A stretch of 64,000 nucleotides of DNA from an uncultured virus (IMG/VR IMGVR_UViG_3300050505_000328) (lineage: Duplodnaviria > Heunggongvirae > Uroviricota > Caudoviricetes). A model generated the notes under the pieces. It was given only the letters and a program-made list of their open reading frames with translations. It searched no databases and was not told the origin of the DNA. The DNA lies in the IMG/VR virus record IMGVR_UViG_3300050505_000328; one strand, 5' to 3'. The translations under genes and the position numbers were made by a program. Below, one piece after another: positions 6,745 to 48,330 of the stretch (position 1 is the first letter of the stretch; every line of letters starts with the position of its first letter).

Positions 6745-8600
6745 TGCACGAGCCGACCAAGACCGCGCTGCGTTTTCAGAAACGTCTCGCCGACTACTTG
6801 AAGAAAAAAACTCCGCGTGCGTCGCACGCGCCTGTGATTGAGGAGAACCCGGTGGCCAAAGTGTTGAAGGACAATCCCCGGAAGAAGAAGCGCTCAGCGG
6901 CGCAGATCGCGGCGTTCAAGAAGATGCGTTCGGCGCTCAAGAGCAAGTACGGCACGTCGAACATCGGCAAGATCTCGAAGATGAAGAAACGACCGGCACG
7001 CCGGCAAGAGTTGACCGCGAACCCCAAACTTTCAGAGAATCGTGGCCGGGGTCACCGGTACGAGGAGAATGAGGAGCAAGAACAAATGGCACTTTCGGAA
7101 AACCCCTCCAAGAAGCGCAAGCGTAAGGGCAAGAAGGGCAAGCGGAAGGCCAAGCGCAGGGCTAAGCGGTCTCGTCGCATGACTCCGCTCATGGCCATGG
7201 CTATGGGAGCGGGCGGCGCGAAACGCCGCCGGAAGCGCAAGCACACGAAGAAGGCGAAACGGCGCAGTCACGGCAAGAAGCGCAGCCACGCGAAGAAGCG
7301 TCGTCGCAGCCGTCGCTCGACCGTCGCCAAGACTCACATCGTTCGTCTCCCCGCGGCCAAGGCCGCCCAGGTGCAGGTCGTCGAGGTCACTCGACGCCGC
7401 CGGCACAAGCGGAAGGGCGGGGGTCGCCGGCGCATGATGCAGGAGAACCCCATCGGGCTCGGACTCGTGTCGGGTCACGCTCCGGTGCTCTACGAGAACG
7501 CCGACGGAGCATTCAGCATGAGCTCGATCCGGGCGTACGGCGTCGCGGCCATCGCGGTGTTCATCGGCCTCACGGCCGCTGACGTCGCCGACCGCCTCGT
7601 CGCGACGCGCAAGCCGAAGGACGGGACGAACCCGTACTACGGCAAGGACGCGGCGGCAGCCTACCGCATGAAGCCGGACGCTTGGCGCCTCGCCACGCAG
7701 CTCGGTGGAGCCGCGGCTGGCATGGCCGGCACGTACTTCACGCGCGGCCGCGGGCTCATCCCGTGGGTGCTCGGCGGCGTCGCCGTCGGCTTCGGCGCGA
7801 ACGGCCTGAAGATGCTCTGGGACTGGTACGCAGCCCCGGCGATCTTCAAGGTCAACGCGGCGGACGCGGGCAAGGCCACTTTCGGAAACCGCGCCTACCC
7901 GATGGAGCAGGCGTACATCCAGGAGAACGTCGCGAAGCTCTTCGCCACGCGCCCCTTCATCCCGCAGCTCGCTCCGGGCCAGCAGACTCCGCCCGTCATC
8001 CAGTCGCCGATGGGCGCCGGTGGCGGATCGATCTACCAGCTCGGCGACGCGAACGGCGTCGGCCGTCCGGGTCAGCAAGCTCGCACGTTCGTCAACACCG
8101 GTCGCTTGGGCAACTGCACGGAGTGCGGTGGCTTCAACGGCTGCTACTCGAACTGCGAGACGCTCTGCCCGAACTGCGCCAAGTACAACAACAACACCGA
8201 GTGTCGTCACGTCGTCCAGGCGGGCGAGGACCTCAGCGCTCTCGCGGCTGCTGGAGGCGTCAGCATCGACGCCATCAGCGCCATGAACGGCGGCGGGGAC
8301 CCGAGCTCGTACTGGCAACCCGGCAACGCGGTCATGCTCCCCTACGGAGTGTGCCTCGTGATCGAGAAGCAACCGCCGACTGGCGTCCCGGTGACGAACG
8401 CGCTGCCTCCGCCCGGATACTCGGGCGTGCAGCCGCTCATGCCGGGTGCCGGTCCCGTGCCGGTCGAGGTGTTCACCGACGTGCAGCCGACTGTCCCGCA
8501 GGCGGCACCGCCCGCGGTCATCGCCGGAGCTCGCTCGAACGGCAACATGGACGACATGACGCGCCGGTCGCTGGAGTTCTCCGGAGCGAATCGCCAGTAA
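6741..8600 (+). CDS. K/R-rich putative nucleic-acid-binding membrane protein with ENP repeats, Cys cluster and LysM domain
   Basis: Very basic N-terminal ~250 aa with ~8 xxENP-like motifs; up to three hydrophobic helices; CxxC cluster; LysM-like HVVQAGEDLSALA...VSIDAISAMN...QPGNAVMLP. Confidence 0.75.
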   Translation: MMHEPTKTALRFQKRLADYLKKKTPRASHAPVIEENPVAKVLKDNPRKKKRSAAQIAAFKKMRSALKSKYGTSNIGKISKMKKRPARRQELTANPKLSENRGRGHRYEENEEQEQMALSENPSKKRKRKGKKGKRKAKRRAKRSRRMTPLMAMAMGAGGAKRRRKRKHTKKAKRRSHGKKRSHAKKRRRSRRSTVAKTHIVRLPAAKAAQVQVVEVTRRRRHKRKGGGRRRMMQENPIGLGLVSGHAPVLYENADGAFSMSSIRAYGVAAIAVFIGLTAADVADRLVATRKPKDGTNPYYGKDAAAAYRMKPDAWRLATQLGGAAAGMAGTYFTRGRGLIPWVLGGVAVGFGANGLKMLWDWYAAPAIFKVNAADAGKATFGNRAYPMEQAYIQENVAKLFATRPFIPQLAPGQQTPPVIQSPMGAGGGSIYQLGDANGVGRPGQQARTFVNTGRLGNCTECGGFNGCYSNCETLCPNCAKYNNNTECRHVVQAGEDLSALAAAGGVSIDAISAMNGGGDPSSYWQPGNAVMLPYGVCLVIEKQPPTGVPVTNALPPPGYSGVQPLMPGAGPVPVEVFTDVQPTVPQAAPPAVIAGARSNGNMDDMTRRSLEFSGANRQ

Positions 8601-8692
8601 ACCACGACAGAAAAAACTAACCCCGAAACCAAAGTTTGTTTGAGCGGCCGGAGCGGATGACCCGCGGTCGGTCGGAAGGAAAAAGAGAGAAC

Positions 8693-9904
8693 ATGGCCAA
8701 CGTCACCAACAACGCACAAGCCTGGAAGAAGGTCTCGAGCATCGGCGAGGCAGTGAACCTCCCGTGGACCGCCATCACGGCGATCATCAGCGACCAGACC
8801 CAGTTGAAGATGCCACTCACCCCGGCCGAGTTCGCTCGGTTCGAGGCGGGCCTCCAGTTCTTCAACGTCGACACCGAGGCGGAAGCCTGTCCCGGTCGTC
8901 AGATCACCGGCGCCTTCACCGGCGCGCGCGTCGAGACGCCGTTCTTGGCCCTCGGCGCGTTCTTGACCTTCATCGCTGAGGGTCGCCAGTTCGCGCTCCC
9001 CGGCGCGCTGGTCACCGAGCCCGACGCGGGTTCGGCCACGCCGTGCTTCGACGGTTGCGTTCCTGTCGGCGGACTCGCCGGCGACGCTGCCGCGCGCAAT
9101 GCGGCGCTCGACTGGGGTGGTCCCGGGCAGATCTTCGGCGAGAACTTCGTCCAGGCGTATCGCCTGCAGATCCGCATGGGCCGCCGCATCGTCGTCGTCG
9201 ACGAGCTCGCGAGCCACATCGGCGTCTGGCCGAAGCCCAACGTCTTCGGCGGTGCGGGCGACTCGCTCGCGGCCGCGCAGAAGTACGTCATCGCGACGAA
9301 CAGCGTGTTGCACGACAAGGGCTACGATCGGCTCTTCATCCCGCAGAACGTCGTCGTCGGCGACGCGGGCACCGAGTGCATCGGTGCACCGACTGCCGGC
9401 AACACCTACGGGCACTTCACCGGAACCGGCCTCGGGCACAAGATGTACTGCTTCCAGCGCCCGCTGCTCTACGTCCCGACGACCACGATCCGCATCGGGC
9501 TGTCGCGCGTCGAGCAGGACTGCTGCTTCCTCGAAGCGATGCGTCGCGAGGGCGTGCTCGACCTGGAGACCATCCCGTCTCCGGCGCCGGGCATCCTGAC
9601 CGAGGACACCGCGTGCGGCGTCGGCTACTCGTCGGCGTACACCATCCCCGGCGGGTGCTTCTCGTTCGGCGTGGGCCTGTTCGGAGTCGAGCTCTTCCCG
9701 AGCGCGTGCATCGACTACCTGAACTACGTCTACCCGGACTCGCTGCAGTTCCAGATGTTGCTCGAGTCGAGCTACATCCAGGGCCTGCTCCAGCAGAGCG
9801 CGCTCAAGGGTACGGCCCACCTCTCGGGCCTCACCAAGCAGGGCAAGGAGAACCTCAAGATCCTGCTCGAGAACCGCAAGGCGACCGTCAACCCCGACGA
9901 GTGA
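8693..9904 (+). CDS. Candidate major capsid protein (fold unverified)
   Basis: 403 aa, no TM; purine-rich RBS; strongly biased codons; followed by a hairpin; central position in the structural block. No recognisable sequence motif. Confidence 0.45.
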   Translation: MANVTNNAQAWKKVSSIGEAVNLPWTAITAIISDQTQLKMPLTPAEFARFEAGLQFFNVDTEAEACPGRQITGAFTGARVETPFLALGAFLTFIAEGRQFALPGALVTEPDAGSATPCFDGCVPVGGLAGDAAARNAALDWGGPGQIFGENFVQAYRLQIRMGRRIVVVDELASHIGVWPKPNVFGGAGDSLAAAQKYVIATNSVLHDKGYDRLFIPQNVVVGDAGTECIGAPTAGNTYGHFTGTGLGHKMYCFQRPLLYVPTTTIRIGLSRVEQDCCFLEAMRREGVLDLETIPSPAPGILTEDTACGVGYSSAYTIPGGCFSFGVGLFGVELFPSACIDYLNYVYPDSLQFQMLLESSYIQGLLQQSALKGTAHLSGLTKQGKENLKILLENRKATVNPDE

Positions 9905-9919
9905 TCGGACTAACGGCGA

Positions 9920-9949
9920 GGGGTGCTCGGGCTCACGCTCGGGCACCCC
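9920..9949 (+). terminator. GC-rich stem-loop after the candidate capsid gene
   Basis: GGGGTGCTCGGGC-TCAC-GCTCGGGCACCCC, 13-bp stem with 2 G-U pairs; pyrimidine-rich tail but no immediate U-run. Confidence 0.5.
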
Positions 9950-9991
9950 GCACCGCCTCTTCACTCACTCTCTTTTGGATTCGAGGTCACA

Positions 9992-10612
9992 GTGCGAAAG
10001 ACAGCCCCCCGCCAGTTCACGTTGGGCGAGATTGCGGAGTTCGATCCGAAGCTCGCTGCGACGCTCCTGTACTCCGGAGCGAGCGCGCGCGGCATCGTCT
10101 CGAGCGCGATCGGCGGTTGGGAGATCTTGAACCTCCGCGCCTCGTTCACGAGCGCGACCGCCAACCAACCCTTGCCCGTCAAGTTCGAGGAGCTCGCCGA
10201 GGTCGACGTCTGGTTGAAGGACGTCCAGGCGACCGTCCGCCGGCCGAACTACTTTCCCGGCAACCCTCTCCGCGACATCGCGAACACCGCATACGCGCAG
10301 AACCCGGACATCGACATCACGCTGCAGATCCGCACGTGGTGCAACTTCGTCATCTCCAGCGACCCGACCCCGCTCGGCAACTTCGAGGAGGCGTTCAGCT
10401 GCGTCTGCCCGGTGGGCCTCGTGCTCACGTGCGGGGCGTCGGCCATCGCCACCTTCACGAACACCCGCGCCCTCGTCGACCCCGACGAGATCCCGACCGA
10501 GGTCATCGTCAGCCTCCACGTCATGCGTCTCCCGCGCAGCAACTGCTACGCGCAGATCTCGATCCAGGACGCGCTCGCGGTCCTCAAGGAAAAGGGCATC
10601 TGTCCGCCCTGA
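9992..10612 (+). CDS. Putative structural protein (beta-rich; minor capsid candidate)
   Basis: GTG start after GAGG; alternating hydrophobic pattern; no TM. Confidence 0.5.
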   Translation: MRKTAPRQFTLGEIAEFDPKLAATLLYSGASARGIVSSAIGGWEILNLRASFTSATANQPLPVKFEELAEVDVWLKDVQATVRRPNYFPGNPLRDIANTAYAQNPDIDITLQIRTWCNFVISSDPTPLGNFEEAFSCVCPVGLVLTCGASAIATFTNTRALVDPDEIPTEVIVSLHVMRLPRSNCYAQISIQDALAVLKEKGICPP

Positions 10613-10628
10613 GCGAAGGGTGTGACGG

Positions 10629-11510
10629 ATGGAACTTGAGAAGATCGGACCCGCAACCGCAGCACAGACCGAGATCGCGCACGTAGGCGCTGACCACCGG
10701 CACTGGCTCTGCGGCTGCCCGGTGCTGCTCGACGTGGTGTCGAGCGCGTTCCAACTGCGCAACATCGCGGTCGGTTCGTCCCCGTACGTCGGCGACATGA
10801 GCTCGACGGGCATCGAGGTGCCGCTCGCCCCGACCACGGACCAGTACCACCGGTACCTGTTCCGGCTCGTCGTCGTCGACATCCCGAACCATGGCGCGAT
10901 CGTCGTGCGTGCCGTGCACACGGCGCAGACGCTCGCCGGCCTCCTCACGGGCGCGAACCCCGACTGCCCCGGGCGGCCGTTCGAGATCTTGATCCGCGAG
11001 CCGTTCTGGCAGCCGCCGGGCGGCAACATCTCGTGGCACCTCCGCCACCAGCTCCTCGGCCAGGCCGGGAACCGCTTCAGCGACGCGAGCATGGGCGGCG
11101 GGCGCGACGTCTCGTTCGAGGGGAACGACACCGCGCTGCTCTACCGCCCGCCGCTCGTCCCGTACGTGCCACCGAACAGCGGCATGCCCCTCGAGCCGGG
11201 GCTCGGCATGCTGGGCACGTGGCGCGACAACCGCGACTTCGAGACGTACATCCCGGTCTACGGCCCCGGACGCGTGGTGCTCTACGCGAGCGTCAACCAG
11301 TTCGACCCCGCGGACATCTGCAGCGTGACGCCGCCCACGGACCTCGGCGCAATCGCGCAGGAGGACCGGTTCCTCTTCATGTTCCCGACCACGGCCCACT
11401 ACGGTCGCGTCGCCGGCGCGCTCACCGTCGAGCTCTGGCCCGACTGCAGTCAGCTGCCGACCCGGTCTGGCAAACTGTTTCAAAACTCGGACAGGAGATT
11501 GTTTACATGA
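10629..11510 (+). CDS. Putative structural protein (beta-rich)
   Basis: 293 aa, no TM; lies in the capsid-candidate block. Confidence 0.55.
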   Translation: MELEKIGPATAAQTEIAHVGADHRHWLCGCPVLLDVVSSAFQLRNIAVGSSPYVGDMSSTGIEVPLAPTTDQYHRYLFRLVVVDIPNHGAIVVRAVHTAQTLAGLLTGANPDCPGRPFEILIREPFWQPPGGNISWHLRHQLLGQAGNRFSDASMGGGRDVSFEGNDTALLYRPPLVPYVPPNSGMPLEPGLGMLGTWRDNRDFETYIPVYGPGRVVLYASVNQFDPADICSVTPPTDLGAIAQEDRFLFMFPTTAHYGRVAGALTVELWPDCSQLPTRSGKLFQNSDRRLFT

Positions 11511-12709
11511 AGCACGTGAACTGGACCAAACCGATGGCCGGAAAGCAAGGCCGACTCGGTCAACCGTACGACGCCGAGTCGTGGACGTTCACCGTGCGCG
11601 AGAAGTTCGGCAACGGATCGGTCGTGTACGCCTACACGCCGCCCGGGTGGATCACTCACCAGCAGGGCGTGAACCAGCTCCTGAGTCTCGGCCAGACCTA
11701 CGGCGCGAGCTACGTCACGTGCGGCGTCTACAAGAAGGCGTACCAGTACTACGGCCCCGGCACGAGCTACTGCACGTACGACGGCGGCGTCACGTACCAG
11801 GTCGGCGCGATGGTCCCGCCGCCGCCCGAGCCCGTGGCGACGGTGCCCATCCCGTTCTACACCCGGCAGTCGATCTTCCCGTTCGTCGAGACGCCGTTCA
11901 TCGTGCCCTTTGGACGTACCACCACGATCACGTGGACGAATCAGGCTCGGCCGATGCCCCCGTTCCACCCGATCTTCGGCGCGCGGCGCGTGCAATGGAT
12001 CGGACGAACCGGTCGACTCGGGCAAGGCGACTTGCACGATACGATCACCTACAAGTCTTGCTACAACATGTGCGCGCAGAAGTGCACGGCGCAGAATCAA
12101 AACAACCCCGCGGCGTTTGACGCTTGCGTCGTCGCCTGTGACCCCACGTGCCTGGCGCAAGCGGCGCTCGAGGGCGGGTCACCGACGAACGTCGGTGCGC
12201 TGCAGGCCAAGATCAACGCTGCGCTCGCGACGCAGAAGATCTGCCCGATCGGCGCGGACGGCAAGCTCGGTCCCACGACCTGCGCGGCGGCGATCTACGT
12301 GCAGACTTACCTCGACGGGTCCGTCGCCGTCCCGGCCCAGTGCGGGAGCATCGACCAGTCGAAGAGCGCGTTCAATCCGGACTGCAAGACCGGCACGCCC
12401 GGCCCCGCACCCGGTTGCACCGACAACGCTGGCTGCTCGCCTACGCAGGATTGCGTGAACGGCAAGTGCGTTGACAAGTGCCCGGCGAACTACACCCGCA
12501 ACGCTACGGGTGACTGCGTCGCCAACCCCGCCGTCTCGTCGACGTCGACCGGCCTCGGCGGCGTCGGAGCGCTCGCGCTCGCCGGTCTCGCGCTCGGCGC
12601 GTTCGCGTTCTTCGGGAAGCCCCCGAAGCTGCCGAAGTCCGCCGCGGGTCGTCTCCAGCAGAACCCGAAGCGCCGCCGGCACAAGAAGCGCGGTCGGTAC
12701 GCCGCCTGA
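11507..12709 (+). CDS. Cys-rich membrane-anchored virion protein with PG-binding-like segment
   Basis: Two W-tags (VNWTKP...GRLGQ; VQWIGRTGRLGQ); 'LQAKIN...GADGKLGPTT'; TM; LQQNP plus basic tail. Confidence 0.75.
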   Translation: MKHVNWTKPMAGKQGRLGQPYDAESWTFTVREKFGNGSVVYAYTPPGWITHQQGVNQLLSLGQTYGASYVTCGVYKKAYQYYGPGTSYCTYDGGVTYQVGAMVPPPPEPVATVPIPFYTRQSIFPFVETPFIVPFGRTTTITWTNQARPMPPFHPIFGARRVQWIGRTGRLGQGDLHDTITYKSCYNMCAQKCTAQNQNNPAAFDACVVACDPTCLAQAALEGGSPTNVGALQAKINAALATQKICPIGADGKLGPTTCAAAIYVQTYLDGSVAVPAQCGSIDQSKSAFNPDCKTGTPGPAPGCTDNAGCSPTQDCVNGKCVDKCPANYTRNATGDCVANPAVSSTSTGLGGVGALALAGLALGAFAFFGKPPKLPKSAAGRLQQNPKRRRHKKRGRYAA

Positions 12710-12724
12710 GGCGGAGGAGGCTAA

Positions 12725-13102
12725 GTGCGGGTCACTTGGGTCAAGCAGAGTGCTCACGGTGTTCAGTGGCTGGGTAAGCTGCCGAGCGGGCGCCTTGGTC
12801 TGACCAACGACGAGCGCTTCAAAGAAGCTGTGTCGTACTTCCCGCCCTGCTACACCAGCGAGTTCGACAACTGCGTCGAAAAAGGGATCGTCACCGCGTA
12901 CCCGAACTGCGCGCGGATCTTGGAACTGTTTGGGCCGGACAAGACCGACCCAGTCTCGATGCAGCTCGACAAGGAGATCGAGAAGATGCCGTTCTGCTCG
13001 GCGTCTGCCGGGAGTTCTGGTGACAACTCGATCGCGTTGCTGCTCGGCGTAGGTGTGGCCGCGCTCGCGCTCGGGTTCATCGCAGGAGGAGGGCTCCGGT
13101 GA
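12725..13102 (+). CDS. Tail-anchored membrane protein with WLG leader
   Basis: RVTWVKQSAHGVQWLGKLPSGRLG; 4 Cys; C-terminal TM; GGAGGAGG RBS. Confidence 0.75.
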   Translation: MRVTWVKQSAHGVQWLGKLPSGRLGLTNDERFKEAVSYFPPCYTSEFDNCVEKGIVTAYPNCARILELFGPDKTDPVSMQLDKEIEKMPFCSASAGSSGDNSIALLLGVGVAALALGFIAGGGLR

Positions 13103-13290
13103 GGGTCACTTGGGTCAAGCAGAGGACGCAGCGGGTCGAGTGGCTAGGCCGCGTGCCTGACACGCTCGGCGCCTCGGCGGCTGTCGAGACGTCGGGCGTT
13201 GTCCCGACGCTCTTCCTGCTCGGCTTGCTAGCTCTGGCGATCTACGGAGGGGTGAAAGCTGTAGGCTCGCTGAAGACGGGGAGGTTGTGA
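13099..13290 (+). CDS. Minimal membrane protein (WLG leader + TM only)
   Basis: RVTWVKQRTQRVEWLGRVPDTLG then TM. Confidence 0.75.
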   Translation: MRVTWVKQRTQRVEWLGRVPDTLGASAAVETSGVVPTLFLLGLLALAIYGGVKAVGSLKTGRL

Positions 13291-13291
13291 G

Positions 13292-13570
13292 GTGTCTGCC
13301 GTCACCTGGGTCAAACCGATGCGCGCGCCGAGCACGCTCGCCGGTCTCCCCTCGGGCGAGAGCGCCGAGGCGCTCGTCGCTGGCGACGTCTCAGCTATCC
13401 CGGTGATGATCTTCCACACGGCGATGCGCGCGGCGCTCGTCGGTGTGGGCATGTACGTAGTGGGGCTGAGAGGCCCGAACCTGATCAAGTACTCACTGGC
13501 CGGCGCGGCGAGCATCGAGGCGTTCGTGCTAGCGTGGGCGCTCTACGAGAACGGAAAGAAGAAGTCATGA
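13292..13570 (+). CDS. Small membrane protein with VTWVKP leader
   Basis: Leader motif; two hydrophobic helices. Confidence 0.7.
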   Translation: MSAVTWVKPMRAPSTLAGLPSGESAEALVAGDVSAIPVMIFHTAMRAALVGVGMYVVGLRGPNLIKYSLAGAASIEAFVLAWALYENGKKKS

Positions 13571-14466
13571 CGCAAGTGCAGTGGGTGAAGCGAGAACCGA
13601 GGACGCAGTGGCTCGGCCGCGTGCCCGGCACGCTCGGCGCGACCGAGGCGGAGATGGTCCAGATCAAGACCCTGCTCTCCGCGTGGGCGCAGGGCGAGGG
13701 GAATCAGTCGGCGGCGTTCCAGGACTACGGGACGAAGCCCGGGGACTTCCTTCCACCGTTCACCAAGATCCGCGACGGCGCGACGCTCGAGTCGTTCAGC
13801 GTCTGGTGGAACAGCGGAGGCAAGCCGCCACACCTCGCGACGGGCGTCGCTGGCGAGGGCGGGACCGTCGCCGCTCCCCCCGACGCGCCGCACCTGCAGG
13901 CGCTGCAGAACTGGGCCGTCAGCAAGGGGATCAACCCGAATCCCGGGCCGAGTCCTGACCCGGTGATCTGCGCGCAGAACTGCCAGCAGAAGTACGCTTT
14001 GGACCCGGTGAACCTCGCCACGTGCTTGTCGCTCTGTGCTGGACAGGCACCGCCGCCGATCATCGTCCCTCCGGTCATCATCCCACCGCCGGTAACACCT
14101 CCTCCCGTGACGCCGCCGCCGGTGACGCCCCCGCCCACGTCGCCGCCCGCGGAGAGCGCGTCGTCGAACACCGGTCTCTACATCGCCGGCGGGATCGCGG
14201 CGCTGGCCGTCGGTGCGCTGCTCCTGAGCAAGGCATCGCCGATGCTGCAGGCTAACCCGCCGCACCCGAAGTCCGGGTACGCCTACGCCTATCGCGGCAA
14301 GAACTGGCGCAACAGCTCCAGCGAGCCGTGGGACATTGTCATGATCACGCCCGCCAACGCGCGCTACATGTACGTGGGCAAGCGCCACATCGACGGGTCC
14401 GAAGTGAACGTCTGGAAGACCGGCCAGCGCTACGTCGCCCAGACCACGGTCATGACCGGAAGGTAA
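13567..14466 (+). CDS. Membrane protein: WLG leader, 4-Cys module, VTPPP linker, TM, LQANP + C-terminal domain
   Basis: Motifs read directly from the translation; ATGA coupling. Confidence 0.75.
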   Translation: MTQVQWVKREPRTQWLGRVPGTLGATEAEMVQIKTLLSAWAQGEGNQSAAFQDYGTKPGDFLPPFTKIRDGATLESFSVWWNSGGKPPHLATGVAGEGGTVAAPPDAPHLQALQNWAVSKGINPNPGPSPDPVICAQNCQQKYALDPVNLATCLSLCAGQAPPPIIVPPVIIPPPVTPPPVTPPPVTPPPTSPPAESASSNTGLYIAGGIAALAVGALLLSKASPMLQANPPHPKSGYAYAYRGKNWRNSSSEPWDIVMITPANARYMYVGKRHIDGSEVNVWKTGQRYVAQTTVMTGR

Positions 14467-14470
14467 GCCG

Positions 14471-15220
14471 ATGCAAGTTCAGTGGGTATCCAAGAAGAAA
14501 GTCTCGTGGCTCGGCGCGGTCTCGCGACTCGGCGAGGTGCCGGCGCTGCAGCTCAAGGCGAAGGCTCTCTTGCTGTCGTGGAAGAACCTGTACGGCAACG
14601 TGCCGGTCACCGACTACGGCACTTCGCAGGACCTGACGGGTTATTGGTCCGCACGCGACCAAGCCATGATGGACGCCTTCGTCGATTACTGGACGGCGCT
14701 CAATGGGCAACCCGTGACGTTCAAGCAATTGCCGGCGGACACGCCGACGACCGGTCAGGTCGCCGCGCTCGAGGCGTGGGCGAAGGGCTTCGTGCAGCCA
14801 GGGCAGTTTCCACCGTTCGGTGGTTCAGCACCGCTACCCGGAACACCGCCGCAGATCCCCGGCCTGCCCCAGGTTCCCGCCGGCTCGCAGGCGTGCGTCG
14901 ACACTTGCCTCCAGGCGACAGGCGTGCCGCCGAACTCGCCCGGTTACGTCTTCAACCTGGTCAATTGCATCGCGCAGTGCGGCGGACCTCAGCCGCCAGT
15001 CAACCCGGCCGACGTGCGCGTCACACCTAACCAGGCGCCGACGACACCGGCGACGGACACGTCGTCGAACACGCTGCCGCTGGTCATCGGCGGCCTCATC
15101 GTGGTCGGAATCGGCGCTGCCCTGTTCTTGGGCGCCCCGAAGCTGCAGGAGAACTTCTACGTCGGCGTCGGTGCGACGGCCGGCATGGGTAGGCCGCGCA
15201 AGCGTCGCAGGAAGCGCTGA
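14471..15220 (+). CDS. Membrane protein, paralogue of 13567..14466
   Basis: VQWVSKKKVSWLG...RLG; shared DYGT..D...RD..W and 4-Cys module; TM; LQENF + RKRRRKR. Confidence 0.75.
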   Translation: MQVQWVSKKKVSWLGAVSRLGEVPALQLKAKALLLSWKNLYGNVPVTDYGTSQDLTGYWSARDQAMMDAFVDYWTALNGQPVTFKQLPADTPTTGQVAALEAWAKGFVQPGQFPPFGGSAPLPGTPPQIPGLPQVPAGSQACVDTCLQATGVPPNSPGYVFNLVNCIAQCGGPQPPVNPADVRVTPNQAPTTPATDTSSNTLPLVIGGLIVVGIGAALFLGAPKLQENFYVGVGATAGMGRPRKRRRKR

Positions 15221-15223
15221 GCC

Positions 15224-15901
15224 GTGAAGGTGGAGTGGAGCAAGCCGATCGACGAGCGCGTGCGTGGCACGCTAGGCCAAGTTCTGCCCGCGGCTCCGGC
15301 CCCACCCGGCTGGACCGGTCCGTGGCCACCACCGAAGCCGCCGTTCTGGGACCTCACGGGAATGCAGTGGTTGCCGACCGGCGACTTCCCGAAGGACCCG
15401 CCCTTCGGTTGGTCCTTGACGGGGCAACCGTGGCCTCCGCCGCGCCCGCCAGGCTACCCGGCGGGCTGGGACTGGCCGTTGAAGCCGCCGCCTGGCTGGC
15501 TCGCGCCCCCGACTTCGGCACCGTCCTCGTCTCCCGGAACCCCCCCTCCCGCTAAGCCGGGGGCGGTGCCGTCCTCTTCTTCCGAGTCCGGCGACAGCAT
15601 GGTCTACGTCGTGGGCGGAGCGCTCGTCGTCGGCCTGTTCCTCATCCTGCTCGGAGGGAGCGGCGCGGCGTTGCAAGAGAACGCTGGCGAGCCGCAGTTC
15701 GACATCTACCTCGAACGCGTGCCTCTTAATCAAGGAGGCTACGACCGCCGCGGTCGATACTGGGGTGTCGGGGCGCCGCTCTACCGCTACTACGATGACG
15801 TCGGCGCGATCGACGGTTACGTCCGCGCGCACAGTCGCGAGGAAGCGAAAGCGAAGGCTCGCTACCAGTCGCCCGGCATGGTTCTCAAGTTCAAACGATA
15901 A
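15224..15901 (+). CDS. Pro/Trp-rich membrane protein with LQENA + C-terminal domain
   Basis: VEWSKP...TLGQ; PPGW/PWPPP repeats; TM. Confidence 0.75.
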   Translation: MKVEWSKPIDERVRGTLGQVLPAAPAPPGWTGPWPPPKPPFWDLTGMQWLPTGDFPKDPPFGWSLTGQPWPPPRPPGYPAGWDWPLKPPPGWLAPPTSAPSSSPGTPPPAKPGAVPSSSSESGDSMVYVVGGALVVGLFLILLGGSGAALQENAGEPQFDIYLERVPLNQGGYDRRGRYWGVGAPLYRYYDDVGAIDGYVRAHSREEAKAKARYQSPGMVLKFKR

Positions 15902-15905
15902 TGCG

Positions 15906-26270: not shown

Positions 26271-26271
26271 G

Positions 26272-38167: not shown

Positions 38168-38168
38168 G

Positions 38169-39434: not shown

Positions 39435-40726
39435 CGACTCCGCAAGTCATCCTCTCCCCGAACGCGAATCTCAATGTCTCGGTGGGCGTGGCACCGCTCA
39501 CGGGCGCGTCCTCGACGCAGACCGCGTGGTTCATCGACCCGGTCGCAGGACTCGACACGAACACCGGCCTCACCTCCGGCACCGCGCTGAAGACCGACGC
39601 CGAGCGCCAGCGCCGCGTGGGCGTGGTCTGGAACATCGTCGGGGACACGACCGTCACGTACTTGACCGACGTGCCATCGACCGACCCGTGCATCTTCACG
39701 TTCACGCTCGGCTCCGCCGGTTGCCTCCGAATCAAGGGCGTCGCCACGACGACCTATACGTCTCCCGGCGGCGGGTTCTCCGCCGTCACGGCCTTGAACC
39801 GCGCGACGAACACGCCGAGCTCGGTCACCGAGGCCGGCATGGGAGCCGGTCGCACCGGTCAACGCGTTCGACTGACGAGTGGCACCGTGGGGGCGCTCGC
39901 CTGGCTCGACAAGGACGGCGGGGGCGGAGTGTACCGCACGAGCCCGTGGGGCAGCGTGAACCTCGCCGCGAGCCCCATCCCTGGAAACCCGACCGCCGCC
40001 GCGGCCGCCGCGGGTAACACGTTCGTGATCGAGAGCCTCACTCAGATCGGGTACCTCGCGATCAACAACCTGTCCGCTCAGTTCGGCGGAGCGCTCACCA
40101 CGAACGGTACTCAGATCGTCGTGTCGGACTTGTACCTTACGCAAGCCGACGTGTGCGTCTCGGTCCTGCCGCTCGCGACGGTCACCAACTCGCCGCTCTT
40201 CTACGGCTGCCGCGTCCACTGTCCCGTGAGCGCGGTCATGTGTGAGTGCTTCATCGACACGGGCGTCATCCACGCCGCCCCGGGCAGCACCGTGGCCTAC
40301 TTCGGCTGCCTATGTCGGTCTCGCCCGACCTTTCAAAACGGCACGGTCGCCTTCCTCGATTACGACACGCTGTTTTCGCAGTCTGGCAACAACGGCTGGC
40401 GCTGTCGCTACGGTGGCGTCGCCCGCGTCGGTACTGCGGCAGTGTTCGACGCCACGAGCGATGCCGTACTCGTCGAGGACGGCGAGGTGAGGTGCGATGC
40501 TTTCTTGAGTGGCAACGATCTACTCTGGGGCACGGGAAGCGGTGGAACCGGAGTCCGCACGCGGTCGGGAGGAAAGCTCACGTTCAACGCCACACCGACC
40601 ATCACGGGCGCGTCTGACGCGATCATCGGCGGGACCGCAGCCGTGACCTGGGCGACCATCGTCGCCGCCCCGCAGAGCTCTATCCTGAACGCCAACAACG
40701 GCGCCTCGATCGGATTGTTCTCCTAA
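39431..40726 (+). CDS. Putative fibre/spike protein 4
   Basis: WFIDPVAGLDTNTG, RVRLTSG, NTFVIES; termini match protein 3. Confidence 0.65.
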   Translation: MTTPQVILSPNANLNVSVGVAPLTGASSTQTAWFIDPVAGLDTNTGLTSGTALKTDAERQRRVGVVWNIVGDTTVTYLTDVPSTDPCIFTFTLGSAGCLRIKGVATTTYTSPGGGFSAVTALNRATNTPSSVTEAGMGAGRTGQRVRLTSGTVGALAWLDKDGGGGVYRTSPWGSVNLAASPIPGNPTAAAAAAGNTFVIESLTQIGYLAINNLSAQFGGALTTNGTQIVVSDLYLTQADVCVSVLPLATVTNSPLFYGCRVHCPVSAVMCECFIDTGVIHAAPGSTVAYFGCLCRSRPTFQNGTVAFLDYDTLFSQSGNNGWRCRYGGVARVGTAAVFDATSDAVLVEDGEVRCDAFLSGNDLLWGTGSGGTGVRTRSGGKLTFNATPTITGASDAIIGGTAAVTWATIVAAPQSSILNANNGASIGLFS

Positions 40727-41562
40727 TGCCCATCACCGTACACGACGACGCTGTCGGCGAGCGCTCACTAGTAGCGGGCAACGCTGTCACCATCACCGGG
40801 GCGACCATCGGCGCGAACGTTCCCGACTTTGCCGCGCTGCCGGCAGCCGTCGCGACGGCGCTGAAGGGTAGAACTTTTCGTTATATCGCGCCGACGAGCG
40901 CGGCGGGCGGCACTATCAGCAATCTCGCGATCGTCAGCAACACTCTTTCCGGTTCGAATACCCCAGCGTTGACGAACGCGGATCTCCGCACCGCTTCATC
41001 GCGCGTGAACACGACGACCAGCACGGCCAACGTGCTTGTCGGGCACAACTTCACCGACCCAGGAATGTGCCGCGGAGCGGTGGCAGGAGTCGGAGGGTTT
41101 TTCTTCTGCCATCGTTTGGCGATCGTCGCACTGACGGCAGACGCGGTCGTTTCGATCGGAACCAACAACGCGGTTATCGGCGGCGGCGCCGATCCTGCTG
41201 CCACCGGCAATCGAATCGTTCTCGGAGCGAGCACGGGCGATACCGACCTAACGATCATCTCAACAGACAATGCGGCGACGGCGACCAAGAGCGCGGCAGT
41301 GATCAGTAAGGCGAACGCGATCATCGGTGACCCGACCACTGGCGGGCCTCGCGTGATGGAGGTTCGCATGTATGCGCTGCCCAACGACACCAAGGTTCAC
41401 GTCCAGGTTCTCGACATCAGCAACGGAACCACGCTCTTCGATGGCGACATCACGCTGACGCTGCCACTGAACACAACGAACCTGCGCCCGACGGCTGTGC
41501 TCGGCCCGAAGTCGAACGCCAATTGCCAAGTCGACTACATATTCTTTTACGGATACTGGTGA
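40726..41562 (+). CDS. Putative receptor-binding / beta-sandwich protein
   Basis: T/A/N-rich; aromatic C-terminus; atypical codon usage. Confidence 0.55.
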   Translation: MPITVHDDAVGERSLVAGNAVTITGATIGANVPDFAALPAAVATALKGRTFRYIAPTSAAGGTISNLAIVSNTLSGSNTPALTNADLRTASSRVNTTTSTANVLVGHNFTDPGMCRGAVAGVGGFFFCHRLAIVALTADAVVSIGTNNAVIGGGADPAATGNRIVLGASTGDTDLTIISTDNAATATKSAAVISKANAIIGDPTTGGPRVMEVRMYALPNDTKVHVQVLDISNGTTLFDGDITLTLPLNTTNLRPTAVLGPKSNANCQVDYIFFYGYW

Positions 41563-42796: not shown

Positions 42797-44152
42797 GTGG
42801 CCGAGGAGGCGGACGTCCTGATCGCCTGGAATCACGGCGGCATACCCGTGAACCAGGTGAAGTCCGCCTTCAAGCGCCCGACGAAGTTCGTCAACCTGCC
42901 GAACCCCGACTCGTGGGCGCAGTCGCTCGCGCCGTACGGGGGCGGCGTGCGAGCGATGATCGCGAAGTACGCGCCGGGCGTGACGCCGCTGCGAGTCGGG
43001 CTGCTCGGGTTCAGCGCGAGCTGCCAGGGCGTCGCGCAGGTGCTCTCGTCGAGCGACGGCGGGCGCGTCGACGCGGTCGTCGCCGTCGACGGGATCCACG
43101 TCGGCTACCTCGACAAGGTCAAGCACGTCTTGAACCCGGCCGGGATGAAGCCGTGGCTCGACTTCGCGGCGCTCGCCGCAAACAACGAGCGCCTGTTCCT
43201 CGACTCGTACTCGAGCGTGGTCCCGCCCTACGCGAGCACGACCGAGACCGCGAACTGGCTCTGGGAGAAGCTCACGAGCAACACCGAAGCCTATGCAGCC
43301 GACACACCGGTGCCCGAGATCAACGTGCCGGCGACGTCGGTGCACGTGGGCGTGCCGCCGGCGACGACGCCTTACTCGATCGACTACCCGGCCCCGCCGT
43401 GGAAGGCGAAGCGCCGGCGCGGCGGACTCATCATGGTCGGCTGCACCGACCTCGACCCGCAGGGCTACGCTGACCACATCTACCAGGGCTCGCGCATGCT
43501 GCCCGTGCTGCTCGCGGCGGTCCTCGCGGAGAGGTGGAACGCGATGGACCCAAAAGCGCCGGGGGCGTCCTGTTTCATAGCGGGCGCCCCCCACCCGGCT
43601 GACTTCTTCACGCTCGGCGCGTCGTGCGCCAAAGGCGTGGTCCTGCCGGCGGACTACATGAGCACGAACGAGGCGGCGCCGCTGCCGAGCTCGGGGATCT
43701 CGACAGCGACACCAAGTCCTGGCTTGGGATCGACCGAGAGCTCAGGCTTCCCGTGGGGCGCTGTCGCGCTCGCGGGCGTCGCCGCGGTCGTGGTCGGGGG
43801 CATCGTCGTCGGCGCGCCCAAGGCAGCGTCCGGCCTCTCCCTGCAGCAGAACCCGCTCGCGTACACGGTCACCTTCACGAACGGGAACAAGACCGCGCTC
43901 ATCAAGTACGGCTCTGCAGACGACCCGGGGCGCGTGTTCACGCTTCGTGTCCACAAGCACGCCACTTGGGAACTAATCAACCCAGATGGGTACAGGGTCA
44001 GCGAGGGCACGGTGCAGTACGGCCAACTGGGGTATGCTCGGGGAACGGCACTGGAGCACACCGTGGACAAGGCCGAAAAAGTTTTTCGACAGACCGGGAT
44101 CTGGGCCTACAGCTCTCCGAACAAGGAGCGCTGGGGAGTGAACCAACCGTAA
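42797..44152 (+). CDS. Alpha/beta-hydrolase-like domain + HPADFF + TM + LQQNP + C-terminal domain
   Basis: LLGFSASC, VVAVDGIH, late DH; motifs read from the translation. Confidence 0.65.
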   Translation: MAEEADVLIAWNHGGIPVNQVKSAFKRPTKFVNLPNPDSWAQSLAPYGGGVRAMIAKYAPGVTPLRVGLLGFSASCQGVAQVLSSSDGGRVDAVVAVDGIHVGYLDKVKHVLNPAGMKPWLDFAALAANNERLFLDSYSSVVPPYASTTETANWLWEKLTSNTEAYAADTPVPEINVPATSVHVGVPPATTPYSIDYPAPPWKAKRRRGGLIMVGCTDLDPQGYADHIYQGSRMLPVLLAAVLAERWNAMDPKAPGASCFIAGAPHPADFFTLGASCAKGVVLPADYMSTNEAAPLPSSGISTATPSPGLGSTESSGFPWGAVALAGVAAVVVGGIVVGAPKAASGLSLQQNPLAYTVTFTNGNKTALIKYGSADDPGRVFTLRVHKHATWELINPDGYRVSEGTVQYGQLGYARGTALEHTVDKAEKVFRQTGIWAYSSPNKERWGVNQP

Positions 44153-44577
44153 TGGCGACCAACTGGGTCCCGTGGGCGGTCGGCGCTGGCGTACTGGGCG
44201 CGTGGTGGCTGCTGTCAGGAACGAGCAAGGGCGCGAGCTCCAGCGCTGAGCCGATCCAACCCCTGCCTGGCAGCTGCCTACCCATCGACAAGACGAAGTT
44301 CGAGGCGTGGCTCGTCGAGAAGCAGCTCGCCGGCAACACCACGAACATCACGCTGCCGTTCCCCTCGACCTACGAGTTCCTCGTCACCACCAAGCTCGCG
44401 CCGGCCGACCTCCCGTTCGGCAGGCCGTACGTGCTGGTGCTCGGAAACGGCGAGTTCTGGTACTACAAGGACAAGAACAGCGCGCCGGTCAAGAGTCCGA
44501 ACCTGATGAACCAGTACTGCGCTTACGTGAAGTCGCTCGCCGGTGCGCGTCACCCAGCCGACTTCTTCATGGTGTAA
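44152..44577 (+). CDS. N-anchored membrane protein ending HPADFFMV
   Basis: TAATG coupling; N-terminal TM; GEFWYY...YC. Confidence 0.72.
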   Translation: MATNWVPWAVGAGVLGAWWLLSGTSKGASSSAEPIQPLPGSCLPIDKTKFEAWLVEKQLAGNTTNITLPFPSTYEFLVTTKLAPADLPFGRPYVLVLGNGEFWYYKDKNSAPVKSPNLMNQYCAYVKSLAGARHPADFFMV

Positions 44578-44579: not shown

Positions 44580-45167
44580 ATGGCGAGGCGTCAAAGTGTC
44601 GTGCAGGTCGGGAACGGGATCACGATCCGTTACTCGAACGTGAACCAGGCGTACTTCGTCATGTGGCACAACCAAGTGCTGCGCGTCTTCAATCGATACG
44701 CGGACGCCGAGAGGTACGCGGACGAGATCGCTGGCAACAAGTCTCTCCAGGAGAACCCGAGCGCGCTGCCGTGGATCATTGGCGGAGGTCTCCTCGCGGC
44801 CGGGATCTGGTGGTGGATGTCGCGCGACACCGAGGCGAAGGCCGAGACGCCGAGCGCTCTCCCGTGCCCGATCACGGACGCGATGCTCACGACGTACGTC
44901 AAGTCGAAGCCCACGACGTACAAGCTGTACGTGCCGCCGGACAAGACCCAACCGGTTGCGCAGTGGCCCGCTCCGAAGGCCGACTACGTCTCGAACAAGA
45001 ACGCGCACACGTTCTCGACCGTCGATTGCGGCTTCTACAAGTGGAACGGCACGAAGTGGGTCTCGGACGACGCCGAGAACGCCGCGCTGGCGAAGTTCGT
45101 CGGCGCGAGCGTGACCAAGGGCACGCCAGCTCTCAACGGACACCCCGCCGACTTCTTCATGGTGTGA
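44580..45167 (+). CDS. Small domain + LQENP + TM + domain ending HPADFFMV
   Basis: Motifs read from the translation. Confidence 0.72.
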   Translation: MARRQSVVQVGNGITIRYSNVNQAYFVMWHNQVLRVFNRYADAERYADEIAGNKSLQENPSALPWIIGGGLLAAGIWWWMSRDTEAKAETPSALPCPITDAMLTTYVKSKPTTYKLYVPPDKTQPVAQWPAPKADYVSNKNAHTFSTVDCGFYKWNGTKWVSDDAENAALAKFVGASVTKGTPALNGHPADFFMV

Positions 45168-45170
45168 TCC

Positions 45171-45872
45171 ATGTCAGCAACACGTCGACTTCTAGGTTTG
45201 CTTTCAGCTTCCGGCGGCGAGAAGTCGCTTCACTCTGCGATGGGCAATTGGCGCAGGGGACTAAAAGAAACGGCGGCGACGACGCTCAGCCTCCTGAACG
45301 TGCTCGGCAACATCAACTTCTACACGTCGCAGAACGGCGGGTGGAGGGACATGGTCGGGCAGATCTACACGCCCGGCACGGACATCAGTGACCCGACGCG
45401 ACAGAGCATCGGCGGCAGCGCGTTTCGCGCGTACGCTTTCGCGCTCGGCCGGAGCGTCGACATCGTCTACCACTTCCAGCACGACTACGCGCTCAACTCG
45501 CCGGTCTTCCTGCACGCGCACTGGCTCACGGACGGCACGGAAACGAACGAGGTCACCTGGAGCTACACCTGGACGTACGCGAAGGGTTTCAACCAGCAGA
45601 ACTACGACCTCACGGGCACGACCGTCTTCACCACCGAGGCGCCGCCTGGCTCAGCTTTCCGGCACATGACGAGCGAGATCCCCGGCCCCCTCGACCCGAC
45701 GAACTTCGAGCCCGACGGCATCCTGCTCCTCTCGCTGCAGCGCACCAACAACCCCGTCAATCCGGACAACGGGGACACGGTCTACCTGCTCACGGCCGAC
45801 TGTCACTACCAGGCGAACACGATCGCGACGCTCCATCGACAGCCAAACTTTTACTCTGGACCCGGACCATGA
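45171..45872 (+). CDS. Putative virion beta-sandwich protein with SLH leader
   Basis: LLGLLSASGGEKSLHSAMGNW; aromatic beta-rich body. Confidence 0.62.
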   Translation: MSATRRLLGLLSASGGEKSLHSAMGNWRRGLKETAATTLSLLNVLGNINFYTSQNGGWRDMVGQIYTPGTDISDPTRQSIGGSAFRAYAFALGRSVDIVYHFQHDYALNSPVFLHAHWLTDGTETNEVTWSYTWTYAKGFNQQNYDLTGTTVFTTEAPPGSAFRHMTSEIPGPLDPTNFEPDGILLLSLQRTNNPVNPDNGDTVYLLTADCHYQANTIATLHRQPNFYSGPGP

Positions 45873-46495
45873 AGATGCAAACCAACCCGCGAAGACCGCC
45901 GAAGAAGTGGATGCGCGACTGCGTGCGCGGCGCGTCACAGTCGGCGCAGAACCCGGGCGCGGTCTGCGGCGCGCTCTGGTACCACAAGATGTCGCCCTCC
46001 GCGAAGCGAGCCGCGCTCGCGCGTGAGGGCAAGCTCCAGGCGAACCCGAGCGCCGCGCCTTGGGTGCTCGGAGCGCTCGCTCTCGGCGCAGCCGCGATCT
46101 GGTACCTGAACAAGGACAAGACCGCGTCCACGACGACGACCGCCACGCCCCCGCCTCTCCCACCTGCCGCCGTGTGCACCGTGGACCAGGTCAAGCTCAC
46201 GCAGTGGGGCTTCACCGCGGGTGTGGTCGCTGTCCAGGTCCCGACCGCGTTTCCGGGCGGCACCCCACCCATGCCGAACCAGCTGAAGGCGATGCTCCCG
46301 CCCGCGATGCAAGCGCAGCTCGACGCGCTGTCGTCGGGCCAGGCCGTCGTCGTCGTGCTGCAGGACGGCAGCTTCTGGTACTACGCGAACGACGCGAGCG
46401 CGCCCGTCCGGCGCGACGACCTGCACGCCGACTATTGCCAGAAGTACGGCTCGGCGACGCTGCAGGGGCACCCGATCAACCTGTTCATGATCTGA
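45869..46495 (+). CDS. MQTNP-domain-LQANP + TM + domain ending HPINLFMI
   Basis: GSFWYY...YC matches 44152..44577. Confidence 0.72.
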   Translation: MKMQTNPRRPPKKWMRDCVRGASQSAQNPGAVCGALWYHKMSPSAKRAALAREGKLQANPSAAPWVLGALALGAAAIWYLNKDKTASTTTTATPPPLPPAAVCTVDQVKLTQWGFTAGVVAVQVPTAFPGGTPPMPNQLKAMLPPAMQAQLDALSSGQAVVVVLQDGSFWYYANDASAPVRRDDLHADYCQKYGSATLQGHPINLFMI

Positions 46496-46505
46496 GGAGA
46501 TGACG

Positions 46506-47416: not shown

Positions 47417-47418
47417 GG

Positions 47419-48330
47419 CTAACCCAGCGCCGCGAAGTGCTGCCACTCCTCGACCGGGAGCTCGCGCTTCTCGGTCGGCGTGTGGCCTGGATCGAATATC
47501 ACGAGCGAGTCAGGCGCCTCGTCGCCGTCGACCTCCTCGAACACGCGCCAGCCCACGTTCCCGAGGTGCGTATCGCGCAGCACGAGGTCGTTGTCGAGCA
47601 GCATGCCCAGCGACTCACCGAGCGGCCCGCCGATGGGGCCGCCGAACTTTCGATTCAGGACGTTCTGCAGACGATCGCGTATCTCGTCGCGACGACTCAT
47701 GTGCAGCCGCTCGTACCACTGCCTGCCGATGCCCTTGTACTCGACGAGGCCCTCCATCGCGTTCGCGAACTCGTCGATGTTCGACTTCACCCAGAGCGGT
47801 TTAGCCGCCGAAGAGGTGTCTAGCTGCTTCAGCTCCTTGTAGTTGAAGTTCGCGACATAGTTGTCGGGCACCTCGATGCCGAGTCTGCGCAGCGTGTGCA
47901 CGGTCGGCGCCGCGCTCTGGCGCCGGTCCCACCTCAGCGCCGGCGCGATCTTCTCGCGCACGATGCCGTAGACGCGCTTCATGCGCCCGCCGTAGCGGAT
48001 GCCGGGCTTCAACTCGAAGATGCGCTTGAGTCGCGTGAAGCCGTCCTGCCCGTAGACCTCGTCGGCCTGGAGCTCCGTGATCCTCGCCCAGATGTGCGCC
48101 TCGGTCGGGTCGATCGTGAGCTTCAGCACCCACGGGTCGGCCATGTCCACGACGCAGCCCCAGTGCCCGCAGCCGAGCACGGCGCCGAGCTTCCCGCCGG
48201 CGGCGTTCTCCAGGTTCTCGCGGTGGTCGAGCAGGACCTGCACCCACTTCTTCACGCGCGGGTTGTCGCGGAGCTCGATGCGCGGCTTGCCCTCGAACCG
48301 GGGCACGAACTGGTCCCAGAACGAGGTCAA
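47419..48330 (-). CDS. Protein-kinase-like fold enzyme
   Basis: LGCGHWGCV Gly loop, VLKLT, RDTHLGNVG, IFDPG; TTG start after GGAGGG. Confidence 0.75.
   Translation of the reverse strand: MTSFWDQFVPRFEGKPRIELRDNPRVKKWVQVLLDHRENLENAAGGKLGAVLGCGHWGCVVDMADPWVLKLTIDPTEAHIWARITELQADEVYGQDGFTRLKRIFELKPGIRYGGRMKRVYGIVREKIAPALRWDRRQSAAPTVHTLRRLGIEVPDNYVANFNYKELKQLDTSSAAKPLWVKSNIDEFANAMEGLVEYKGIGRQWYERLHMSRRDEIRDRLQNVLNRKFGGPIGGPLGESLGMLLDNDLVLRDTHLGNVGWRVFEEVDGDEAPDSLVIFDPGHTPTEKRELPVEEWQHFAALG

Follow-up and report, generated by a model that had tools for sequence, protein, structure and literature searches.

What is the role of a five-residue peptide that recurs beside the membrane spans of otherwise unrelated viral proteins? 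The question is raised by a 64,000-nucleotide stretch (hereafter the window) of the uncultured virus IMGVR_UViG_3300050505_000328, in which copies of the type Leu-Gln-Glu-Asn-Pro link membrane anchors to basic tails or to small domains. A preliminary description of the window had taken them for a cleavage or packaging site that loads small effector domains into the virion. Using sequence comparison and structure prediction, we found that the motif, generalised to Phi-x-x-Asn-Pro (Phi, a hydrophobic residue), is a conserved joint that connects a membrane anchor to variable passenger sequence across non-homologous anchors: the motif recurs, it keeps its position and is conserved in relatives, and the sequence beyond it is exchanged. 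Our favoured but tentative reading, to which we give a probability of roughly 0.4, is that the joint is a proteolytic processing or release site.

A six-frame scan for [LMVI][QR]xN[PFA] returned 12 hits in the plus and three in the minus frames. It recovered the copies already described at 12653, 14245, 15143, 15671, 19568, 43841, 44745, 45875 and 46034 on the plus strand and at 48273 on the minus strand, and it added one at 7437, inside the 6741–8600 protein, and a further LQQNP, not described before, at 29681; the latter lies in a methyltransferase and is probably part of the enzyme fold. The carriers are as follows.

6741–8600, plus strand: 619 amino acids (aa), with a 230-aa Arg/Lys-rich N-terminus, spans and a Cys-rich, LysM-like C-terminal part (weak LysM match).
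11537–12709, plus strand: ectodomain with 18 Cys, single span, LQQNP at 12653–12667, 14-aa Arg/Lys tail.
13567–14466, plus strand: 4-Cys ectodomain, Pro-rich stalk, span at about 14167–14232, LQANP at 14245–14259, and a beta module at 14260–14466, called SGYAY after its start.
14471–15220, plus strand: paralogue of 13567–14466, with a span, LQENF at 15143–15157 and a tail ending in an Arg/Lys run.
15224–15901, plus strand: Pro-rich N-terminal part, span, LQENA at 15671–15685, 71-aa aromatic module at 15686–15901.
18803–19627, plus strand: alpha/beta-hydrolase-like domain, span, VRANP at 19568–19582, Arg-rich tail.
42797–44152, plus strand: hydrolase-like domain (aa 1–260), span at about 43745–43822, LQQNP at 43841–43855, 98-aa module at 43856–44152.
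44580–45167, plus strand: 55-aa module at 44580–44744, LQENP at 44745–44759, span, C-terminal domain.
45869–46495, plus strand: MQTNP at 45875–45889, 48-aa basic module at 45890–46033, LQANP at 46034–46048, span, and a C-terminal domain common to several proteins.
47419–48330, minus strand: soluble protein with LRDNP at residue 20 (48259–48273) and no membrane span.

Since the last of these has no span, its membership in the set is uncertain. It had been labelled a kinase, a label that did not hold up: it matched no Pfam, PHROG or NCBIfam family, and kinase-like motifs are apparent by eye only. It has no homologue in five related records and none turned up in a scan of a viral collection. By our own reading of the sequences, the 18803–19627 protein appears to be a paralogue of the 42797 protein. 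The C-terminal domain of 44580–45167 is common to 44152–44577 and 45869–46495; in these three proteins it ends in H-P-A-D-F-F-M-V or similar.

Could the copies be the product of chance, of composition, or of a DNA-level element such as a recombination- or restriction-type site (CTGCAG...AACCC)? The G+C content of the genome is 66%, L, Q and P are common, and two copies have in common the 14-nucleotide string CTGCAGCAGAACCC. We nevertheless consider this explanation extremely improbable. When the 138 proteins predicted from the entire 93-kb genome (27,306 aa) were shuffled 500 times, each within itself, L[QR]xNP was expected 0.48 ± 0.66 times (maximum 4) and was observed 8 times. The wider pattern [LMV][QR]xN[PFA] was observed 13 times against 3.3 ± 1.8 in shuffles (maximum 10), and [LMVIYF]xxNP 36 times against 15.6 ± 3.8 (maximum 30 in 1000 shuffles). 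Moreover, a comparison of 17 copies showed varying codons for the motif (CTC/CTG/TTG/CTT, CAG/CAA, AAC/AAT and CCG/CCC) and dissimilar flanks, which speaks against a DNA-level element and for selection on the peptide. Conservation of the motif in homologues down to about 40–50% identity also speaks against chance. Only part of the span-carrying predicted proteins bear the motif.

In eight proteins the motif adjoins a single predicted span, so that the architecture of anchor, joint and passenger first proposed for them was borne out. Of the eight copies of the strict form L[QR]xNP, six are only a few residues away from a single span. Six of these run in the order ectodomain, span, motif, tail (11537–12709, 13567–14466, 14471–15220, 15224–15901, 18803–19627 and 42797–44152), and there the motif overlaps the span or sits up to 12 residues beyond it. 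The other two (44580–45167 and 45869–46495) run in the order module, motif, span, C-terminal domain, with the motif 0–2 residues ahead of the span. The carriers thus present the motif in both orientations, and they fall into at least five anchor families without mutual resemblance. On the motif side the chain is basic in most carriers (net charge up to +8 in 20 residues), neutral in 42797–44152 and acidic in 15224–15901 and 44580–45167. This side is also free of Cys, save two in the N-terminal module of 45869–46495, and all other cysteines lie on the opposite side (18, 4, 4 and 4 in four ectodomains). The asymmetry of Cys and charge suggests a motif exposed to the cytoplasm, or to the DNA side of a particle, with the large domains pointing outward. 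None of the carriers has a classical signal peptide when the translations are read by eye. Counting N-P near spans genome by genome gave figures too noisy for use, since a lenient predictor took hydrophobic beta-strands for spans.

Is the joint kept in relatives? For the 42797–44152 protein there are 60 homologues, 39 of which consist of the enzyme domain alone (250–274 aa); 23 were retrieved, and the window copy was aligned with 18 long homologues. Phi-x-x-N-x follows the span in all 18, as N-P in 14 and as N-Q, N-S or N-Y in four. The 98-aa tail is kept in nine of them and replaced by other sequence in the remaining nine. Four homologues (P0006, P0007, P0008 and P0010) carry a DUF5661 module inserted after the joint, then a second joint, L-P-N-x, and then the usual tail; a literature search for DUF5661 found no papers.

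An exhaustive HMMER search with 13567–14466 gave 133 proteins, the query included. Among the 54 metagenomic hits with at least 30 aa beyond the last span, 43 have N-P within 30 residues after it. The reversed dipeptide P-N occurs there in 9 of the same 54 proteins, and N-P occurs in the 30 residues ahead of the span in 4. On the 42797 homologues the corresponding count was 12/26 against 2 for P-N, with a denominator inflated by false spans in the enzyme core. In 55 instances, picked like the 54 proteins with N and P fixed by selection, the Asn lies a median of 9 residues from the span (range 2–19). Position −3 is hydrophobic in 31/55 (background 0.26), position −1 is E, A, S or D in 38/55, with Glu in 12, and two or more K/R fall within +2 to +7 in 28. 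Relatives also carry N-Q, N-S, N-A, N-Y and N-R. What follows the joint differs in almost every protein, and almost none of it belongs to a Pfam family.

The passengers themselves proved as diverse as had been described: among the four mini-domains of the window, no BLASTP pair falls below E 0.3. Stand-alone homologues, which in early regions of other phages would support the cargo fusion proposed earlier, were found for the SGYAY module, whose hidden Markov model matches 81 of 132 hits, 36 of them stand-alone (≤125 aa). The module occurs at the N-terminus, internally or at the C-terminus of unrelated proteins. The possibility that the domains occur only as fixed parts of these proteins is therefore contradicted for the SGYAY module, for the N-terminal module of 45869–46495 and for the tail of 42797–44152. 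For modules 15686–15901 and 44580–44744 no relatives were found outside the window genome among the sequences compared. The basic module of 45869–46495 recurs in P0112, where an SGYAY module and an N-P joint precede it. In another related record (L006), SGYAY or other modules replace the N-terminal module of a 44580-type protein; SGYAY is joined to the span there by L-L-E-N-Q. Several multi-module proteins have N-P on both sides of the SGYAY module. Overall, N-P lies within 20 residues upstream of 26/68 SGYAY modules (P-N, 11; background 8.4% per window) and within 20 residues downstream of 5/23 (P-N, 0). N-P is thus enriched at SGYAY modules without being a universal module separator, and its tight link is to the span.

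An AlphaFold2 model of SGYAY is a small five-stranded fold (predicted local distance difference test score, pLDDT, 91.1), in which the motif occupies the unstructured residues 1–12. No solved structure is a convincing match: Foldseek returned none for this fold, and the best VIA-align Z was 3.7, to SH3b-like domains. The ESM Atlas gave only SH3-like leads below 0.9, a profile search of the PDB only a weak uL24 stretch (E 0.014), and PHROGs no family. The alignment is too variable for a pattern scan, and a scan of the viral collection yielded nothing beyond a chance match of 18 residues in a 288-kb contig of low GC.

The motif has a different setting in the 6741–8600 protein. The preliminary description counted about eight copies here, which holds loosely: five are of the Phi-xxNP type, and the rest are a conserved DGTNP and two N-R/N-A variants. 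Copies of Phi-x-x-N-P/R stand at 6837, 6864, 7011, 7029, 7092 and 7437. All 10 homologues have the basic N-terminal region, and the 11 proteins contain 1–14 N-P copies each, at least three in nine of them. The N-P copies and N-R/N-K variants lie at non-aligned positions, with K/R runs after each.

Would a purely structural role explain these observations? Asn-Pro could act as a passive hinge that caps a helix or breaks the chain at the membrane-proximal end, kept by descent, with tails swapped beyond the last conserved residues. The motif does lie in coil ahead of a folded module, the sequence beyond it is exchanged, orthologues can do without it, and N-P is only partially enriched around SGYAY modules. 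Yet a hinge leaves unexplained the hydrophobic −3 and the E/A/S/D preference at −1, the occurrence beside unrelated spans on either side, and the repeated, non-aligned copies in the basic region of the 6741–8600 family. Because these features point to recognition rather than to shape alone, we regard the hinge as unlikely.

What, then, might recognise the joint? If it is a processing site, it would mark the border between the anchor and the sequence on the Cys-free, mostly basic side, that is, the cytoplasmic side or the DNA side of the virion. An endopeptidase, viral or host, would read the hydrophobic −3, the small or acidic −1 and the Asn, and then cut, so that small folded modules and Arg/Lys peptides would come loose from the membrane. 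In 6741–8600, cutting would chop the protamine-like N-terminal region into basic peptides. The freed modules could then be delivered with the DNA from a virion in which we place them by inference. Several lines of evidence lead us to this reading: the excess of 8 copies against 0.48 in shuffles; the placement beside unrelated spans in both orientations, always on the Cys-free side; the persistence of the joint in relatives (18/18 long 42797 homologues and 43/54 search hits); and the subsite-like preferences at −3, −1 and +2 to +7. To these we add the modules bracketed by joints in the DUF5661 and SGYAY cases, the repeated N-P between K/R runs in the 6741–8600 family, a protein of one relative (G003) that ends exactly at ...A-N-P, the modelled position in coil ahead of a folded module, and the precedent of the phage SPN3US, described below.

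Alternatively, the joint may never be cut. It could be a docking motif at the inner membrane face, bound by a viral core, matrix, capsid or DNA-condensing protein that recruits anchors and their tails to the particle or the assembly site. Position-specific conservation in both orientations on non-homologous anchors suits such a tag, as do the N-terminal copies and the protein that ends at the motif. Motif frequency varies between related genomes, as expected if the motif co-evolves with a reader protein, and the Pfam, PHROG and NCBIfam scans found no protease. Tandem copies within one basic region, and copies that flank inserted modules, are easier to understand as cut sites, and a binding partner would have to be postulated. 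We consider docking a serious though doubtful alternative.

Several observations weigh against processing. No protease was assigned in the Pfam, PHROG and NCBIfam scans. The only protease-like candidate of the conserved core, the stretch at 2718–11510 that is common to G003 and the distant G004, is the following.

4416–5336, plus strand: membrane-anchored, transglutaminase-like (papain-fold) protein.

This protein shows an apparent Cys/His/Asp triad by eye and itself matches neither Transglut_core nor, by sequence, anything in the PDB. Its homologue in a distant relative (L010), 36–38% identical, matches Pfam Transglut_core (E 5.3e-5, 23.9 bits, cut-off 23). However, flank charges place its predicted catalytic part on the side of the span away from the motif, and G003 has two copies of the homologue, one intact and one without the Cys and the His. 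The motif is also dispensable: the G003 orthologue of 11537–12709 lacks it and keeps the basic tail, and the motif is scarce in L010. Copies at the extreme N-terminus, at residue 3 of 45869–46495 and in some stand-alone SGYAY proteins that start M-x-N-P, make poor cut sites, since a cut would remove almost nothing. N-P accompanies only 26/68 SGYAY modules upstream and 5/23 downstream, and the Pro after Asn is partly built into the picking of instances; relatives also have other residues at this position. Three soluble proteins bear copies of uncertain meaning: besides the methyltransferase (29681) and the kinase-like protein (48273), there is one of 166 aa encoded outside the window. The presence of the carriers in virions is something that we infer.

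Would a separate protease be needed at all? A fixed NPTH turn within a folded domain is the setting of the known self-cleaving sites. By Asn cyclisation the joint could cut itself, as in the YscU/FlhB family; the Asn is constant and is followed by different residues (P, F, A, Q, S, Y or R), and a protease gene was not found. In YscU, FlhB and EscU, membrane proteins of type III secretion, Asn-Pro auto-cleavage takes place on the cytoplasmic side of the membrane (PMC3189125). These proteins share the NPTH tetrapeptide, whereas no T-H follows N-P here and mostly R, K, A, G or S is found at +2 and +3. Their site is part of a folded domain; the joint is predicted to lie in an unstructured linker, occurs in many unrelated carriers, and in 6741–8600 stands as tandem copies in a low-complexity basic region. 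Self-cleavage is therefore very unlikely in our estimate. Two further candidates were rejected. The 2A-like 'stop-go' motif is N-P-G-P, and Gly follows N-P in only 5/55 instances. An N-glycosylation sequon is incompatible with Pro after Asn and, on reading the sequences, with the lack of a regular S/T at +2. Readings beyond those named here share a very small remainder of the probability.

How does the joint compare with known systems? The T4 prohead protease gp21 acts with capsid-targeting sequences. The likeness to prohead-protease substrates is one short motif in many unrelated virion proteins, with several copies in one precursor. The differences are that the prohead cleavage motif ends in Glu (L/I-x-E or A/S/G-x-E) and the joint has a constant Asn, that the prohead substrates are soluble head proteins of tailed phages and ours cross the membrane once, next to the motif, and that the prohead protease gene lies beside portal and major capsid genes, whereas no prohead protease, portal, terminase or HK97 capsid gene is detectable in this genome. 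According to passages of PMC10052503, one protease of SPN3US (gp245) uses a short motif to cut a large set of head and ejection proteins; several copies of the motif may stand in one propeptide, and among the products are passenger proteins destined for the host cell.

The exchange of unrelated modules also recalls the polyvalent proteins, which passages of PMC5512222 (Iyer et al. 2017) describe, for phages and conjugative elements, as chains of small, mutually unrelated domains. Elements exchange these domains with one another, the proteins are proposed to accompany the DNA, and some of them are proteolytically processed. Shuffled unrelated modules are the likeness, and SGYAY is fused to a RadC-type JAB domain in two proteins (P0161 and P0191, both metagenomic). 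Multi-module proteins exist among the 13567–14466 search hits, and only these 2 of the 94 scanned have a domain typical of the polyvalent class. The word 'transmembrane' occurs nowhere in the text of PMC5512222, and its passages on these proteins mention no shared junction motif; the processing that they describe is by built-in peptidase domains, which are absent here. Unlike those of polyvalent proteins, nearly all modules here lack a Pfam family.

Tripartite C-terminal sorting signals (LPXTG for sortase, PEP-CTERM for exosortase) consist of a signature, a hydrophobic span and a basic cluster at the protein end, and the joint resembles them in having a signature, one hydrophobic span and a basic cluster close together at the protein end. 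Their signature is on the exported side, whereas the joint is on the basic side of the span or N-terminal to an N-terminal span. NCBIfam sorting-domain models matched none of 10 + 30 proteins. For 6741–8600 an analogy is the adenovirus protease, which turns basic precursors of core proteins into peptides that condense DNA; in both cases the precursor is rich in Arg/Lys and contains one short motif several times. Motif and enzyme family are different, adenovirus is a eukaryotic virus, and no adenain-like gene was detected in a Pfam scan here.

Beside the joint, the membrane proteins carry a second motif (hydrophobic, x, Trp, V/T/S, Lys/Arg, a short gap and (W)-L-G). It stands at the very N-terminus of at least eight consecutive signal-peptide-less membrane proteins in 11537–18183 (those starting at 11537, 12725, 13099, 13292, 13567, 14471, 15224 and 17173), and it is family-wide in metagenomic homologues. 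The protein at 5333 possibly has it too. In 4416–5336 it is internal (about aa 243–256), between the catalytic part and the span. This second motif might be an export, assembly or cross-linking tag, and its conserved Lys beside a transglutaminase-like enzyme is suggestive.

What kind of virus carries these proteins? The record comprises 97,101 bases, both ends of which repeat 3,726 bases (3,725 identical), implying a unit genome of 93,375 bases that is probably complete. G+C content runs from 63 to 69% across the window, and the window and the full record differ by single bases at positions 4517, 16833 and 45685. With a codon-bias script, 96 genes were predicted for the window and 143 for the record. 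Genes lie on the plus strand from 1 to about 47,000, on the minus strand to about 55,000 and on the plus strand again beyond. Other assigned features are listed below; replication genes, the sugar block, GroES, the Tad2-like protein and the cell-wall enzymes were recognised with Pfam, PHROGs and NCBIfam.

2718–4322: 534-aa protein whose central ~200 aa are almost wholly Pro, Gln, Met, Gly and Tyr.
8693–9904: conserved protein with a predicted beta-rich structure.
15906: lytic transglycosylase, a cell-wall enzyme.
16601: GDSL lipase, a cell-wall enzyme.
18180: M15-like peptidase, a cell-wall enzyme.
20803: peptidoglycan-binding protein, counted with the cell-wall enzymes.
25524–25814: GroES.
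26019–26270: Tad2-like anti-Thoeris protein.
26–35 kb: sugar and glycosyltransferase block, 9 kb within 26019–35027, with glycosyltransferases, methyltransferases and dTDP/GDP-sugar enzymes.
51354–52895: integrase, within the minus-strand block.
Right part of the window and outside it: replication genes.

The 2718–4322 protein is kept in G003 and G004 and could be a scaffold- or matrix-like disordered protein. As a speculation, the Pro/Thr/Ser-rich stalks of the membrane proteins are possible targets of the sugar-enzyme block. Five Ala/Gly/Thr-rich, fibre-like proteins lie at 35058–41562; the proteins at 35058 and 45171 have a common N-terminal anchor, and those at 42275 and 46533 form a paralogous pair.

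Terminase, portal, HK97-type capsid, tail tube and tape-measure genes gave no Pfam, PHROGs or NCBIfam match anywhere in the 93 kb, and a prohead protease gave none among 96 + 44 open reading frames, although highly divergent genes could escape. The Walker-A pattern occurs only in a helicase, a primase-helicase and one small protein, none of them in the structural region; an FtsK/HerA-type packaging ATPase accordingly has no Walker-A candidate there, and no family match was found for it. Cultured-phage relatives were not found by megablast, nor by tblastn, whether the query was the SGYAY module or the hydrolase domain. The known relatives are uncultured contigs only, of 73–78 kb and rated complete, one of them with terminal repeats. 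One copy (L012) was binned in a Gemmatimonadaceae metagenome-assembled genome, which is a weak indication of the host; a literature search on membrane-bearing Gemmatimonadota phages found nothing relevant.

In the conserved core, the 10629–11510 protein had no match in a single-protein scan of the viral collection. The AlphaFold2 model of 8693–9904 is of moderate confidence (pLDDT 72.6, predicted template modelling score 0.72). Foldseek returned nothing at E ≤ 0.001, and its highest-ranking entries, all weak, were capsid proteins of the jelly-roll type at very low TM-scores. VIA-align gave Z 5.7 to the SPV1 capsid protein (137 aligned, root-mean-square deviation 3.7), 5.2 and 5.1 to HCIV-1 and HHIV-2, viruses with an internal membrane, and 4.8 to PRD1 P3, all below 8, the level that the tool deems meaningful, and non-viral beta-sandwiches scored equally (best Z 6.0). 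Neither the ESM Atlas nor a sequence search of the PDB returned anything. On this model, 8693–9904 is a possible jelly-roll capsid protein, of the type found in internal-membrane phages such as tectiviruses and sphaerolipoviruses.

The structural block is rich in single-span proteins, and membrane-anchored wall enzymes occur in this genome and in its relatives. Together with a protamine-like membrane protein and the lack of tailed-phage hallmarks, these features make a membrane-bearing, non-tailed virion conceivable; we give it a low probability, because a packaging ATPase was not found either. It is quite improbable, though conceivable, that the genome represents an undescribed lineage of large bacterial viruses with double-stranded DNA (73–93 kb), which would have a membrane and no tail and might infect Gemmatimonadota. 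Such particles would display wall enzymes and Cys-rich ectodomains on their surface and hold protamine-like peptides and a quickly changing assortment of passenger modules on the inner membrane face by the Phi-x-x-Asn-Pro release site, to be freed and to enter the next host with the DNA.

The complete 93-kb genome, with its many single-span proteins in the structural block and no detectable terminase, portal or HK97 capsid, may thus represent a new virion type and deserves attention. If passengers are indeed held in this way, this would be, to our knowledge, the first case in which they are tethered to a membrane span and not packed free in the head. Should the joint be a cut or dock site, it would provide a simple sequence rule for finding passenger proteins in uncultured viral sequence, one that here already captured 43 of 54 diverse proteins from metagenomes, nearly all of which lack a family assignment. 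Such passengers would then be likely to act early and to be directed at the host.

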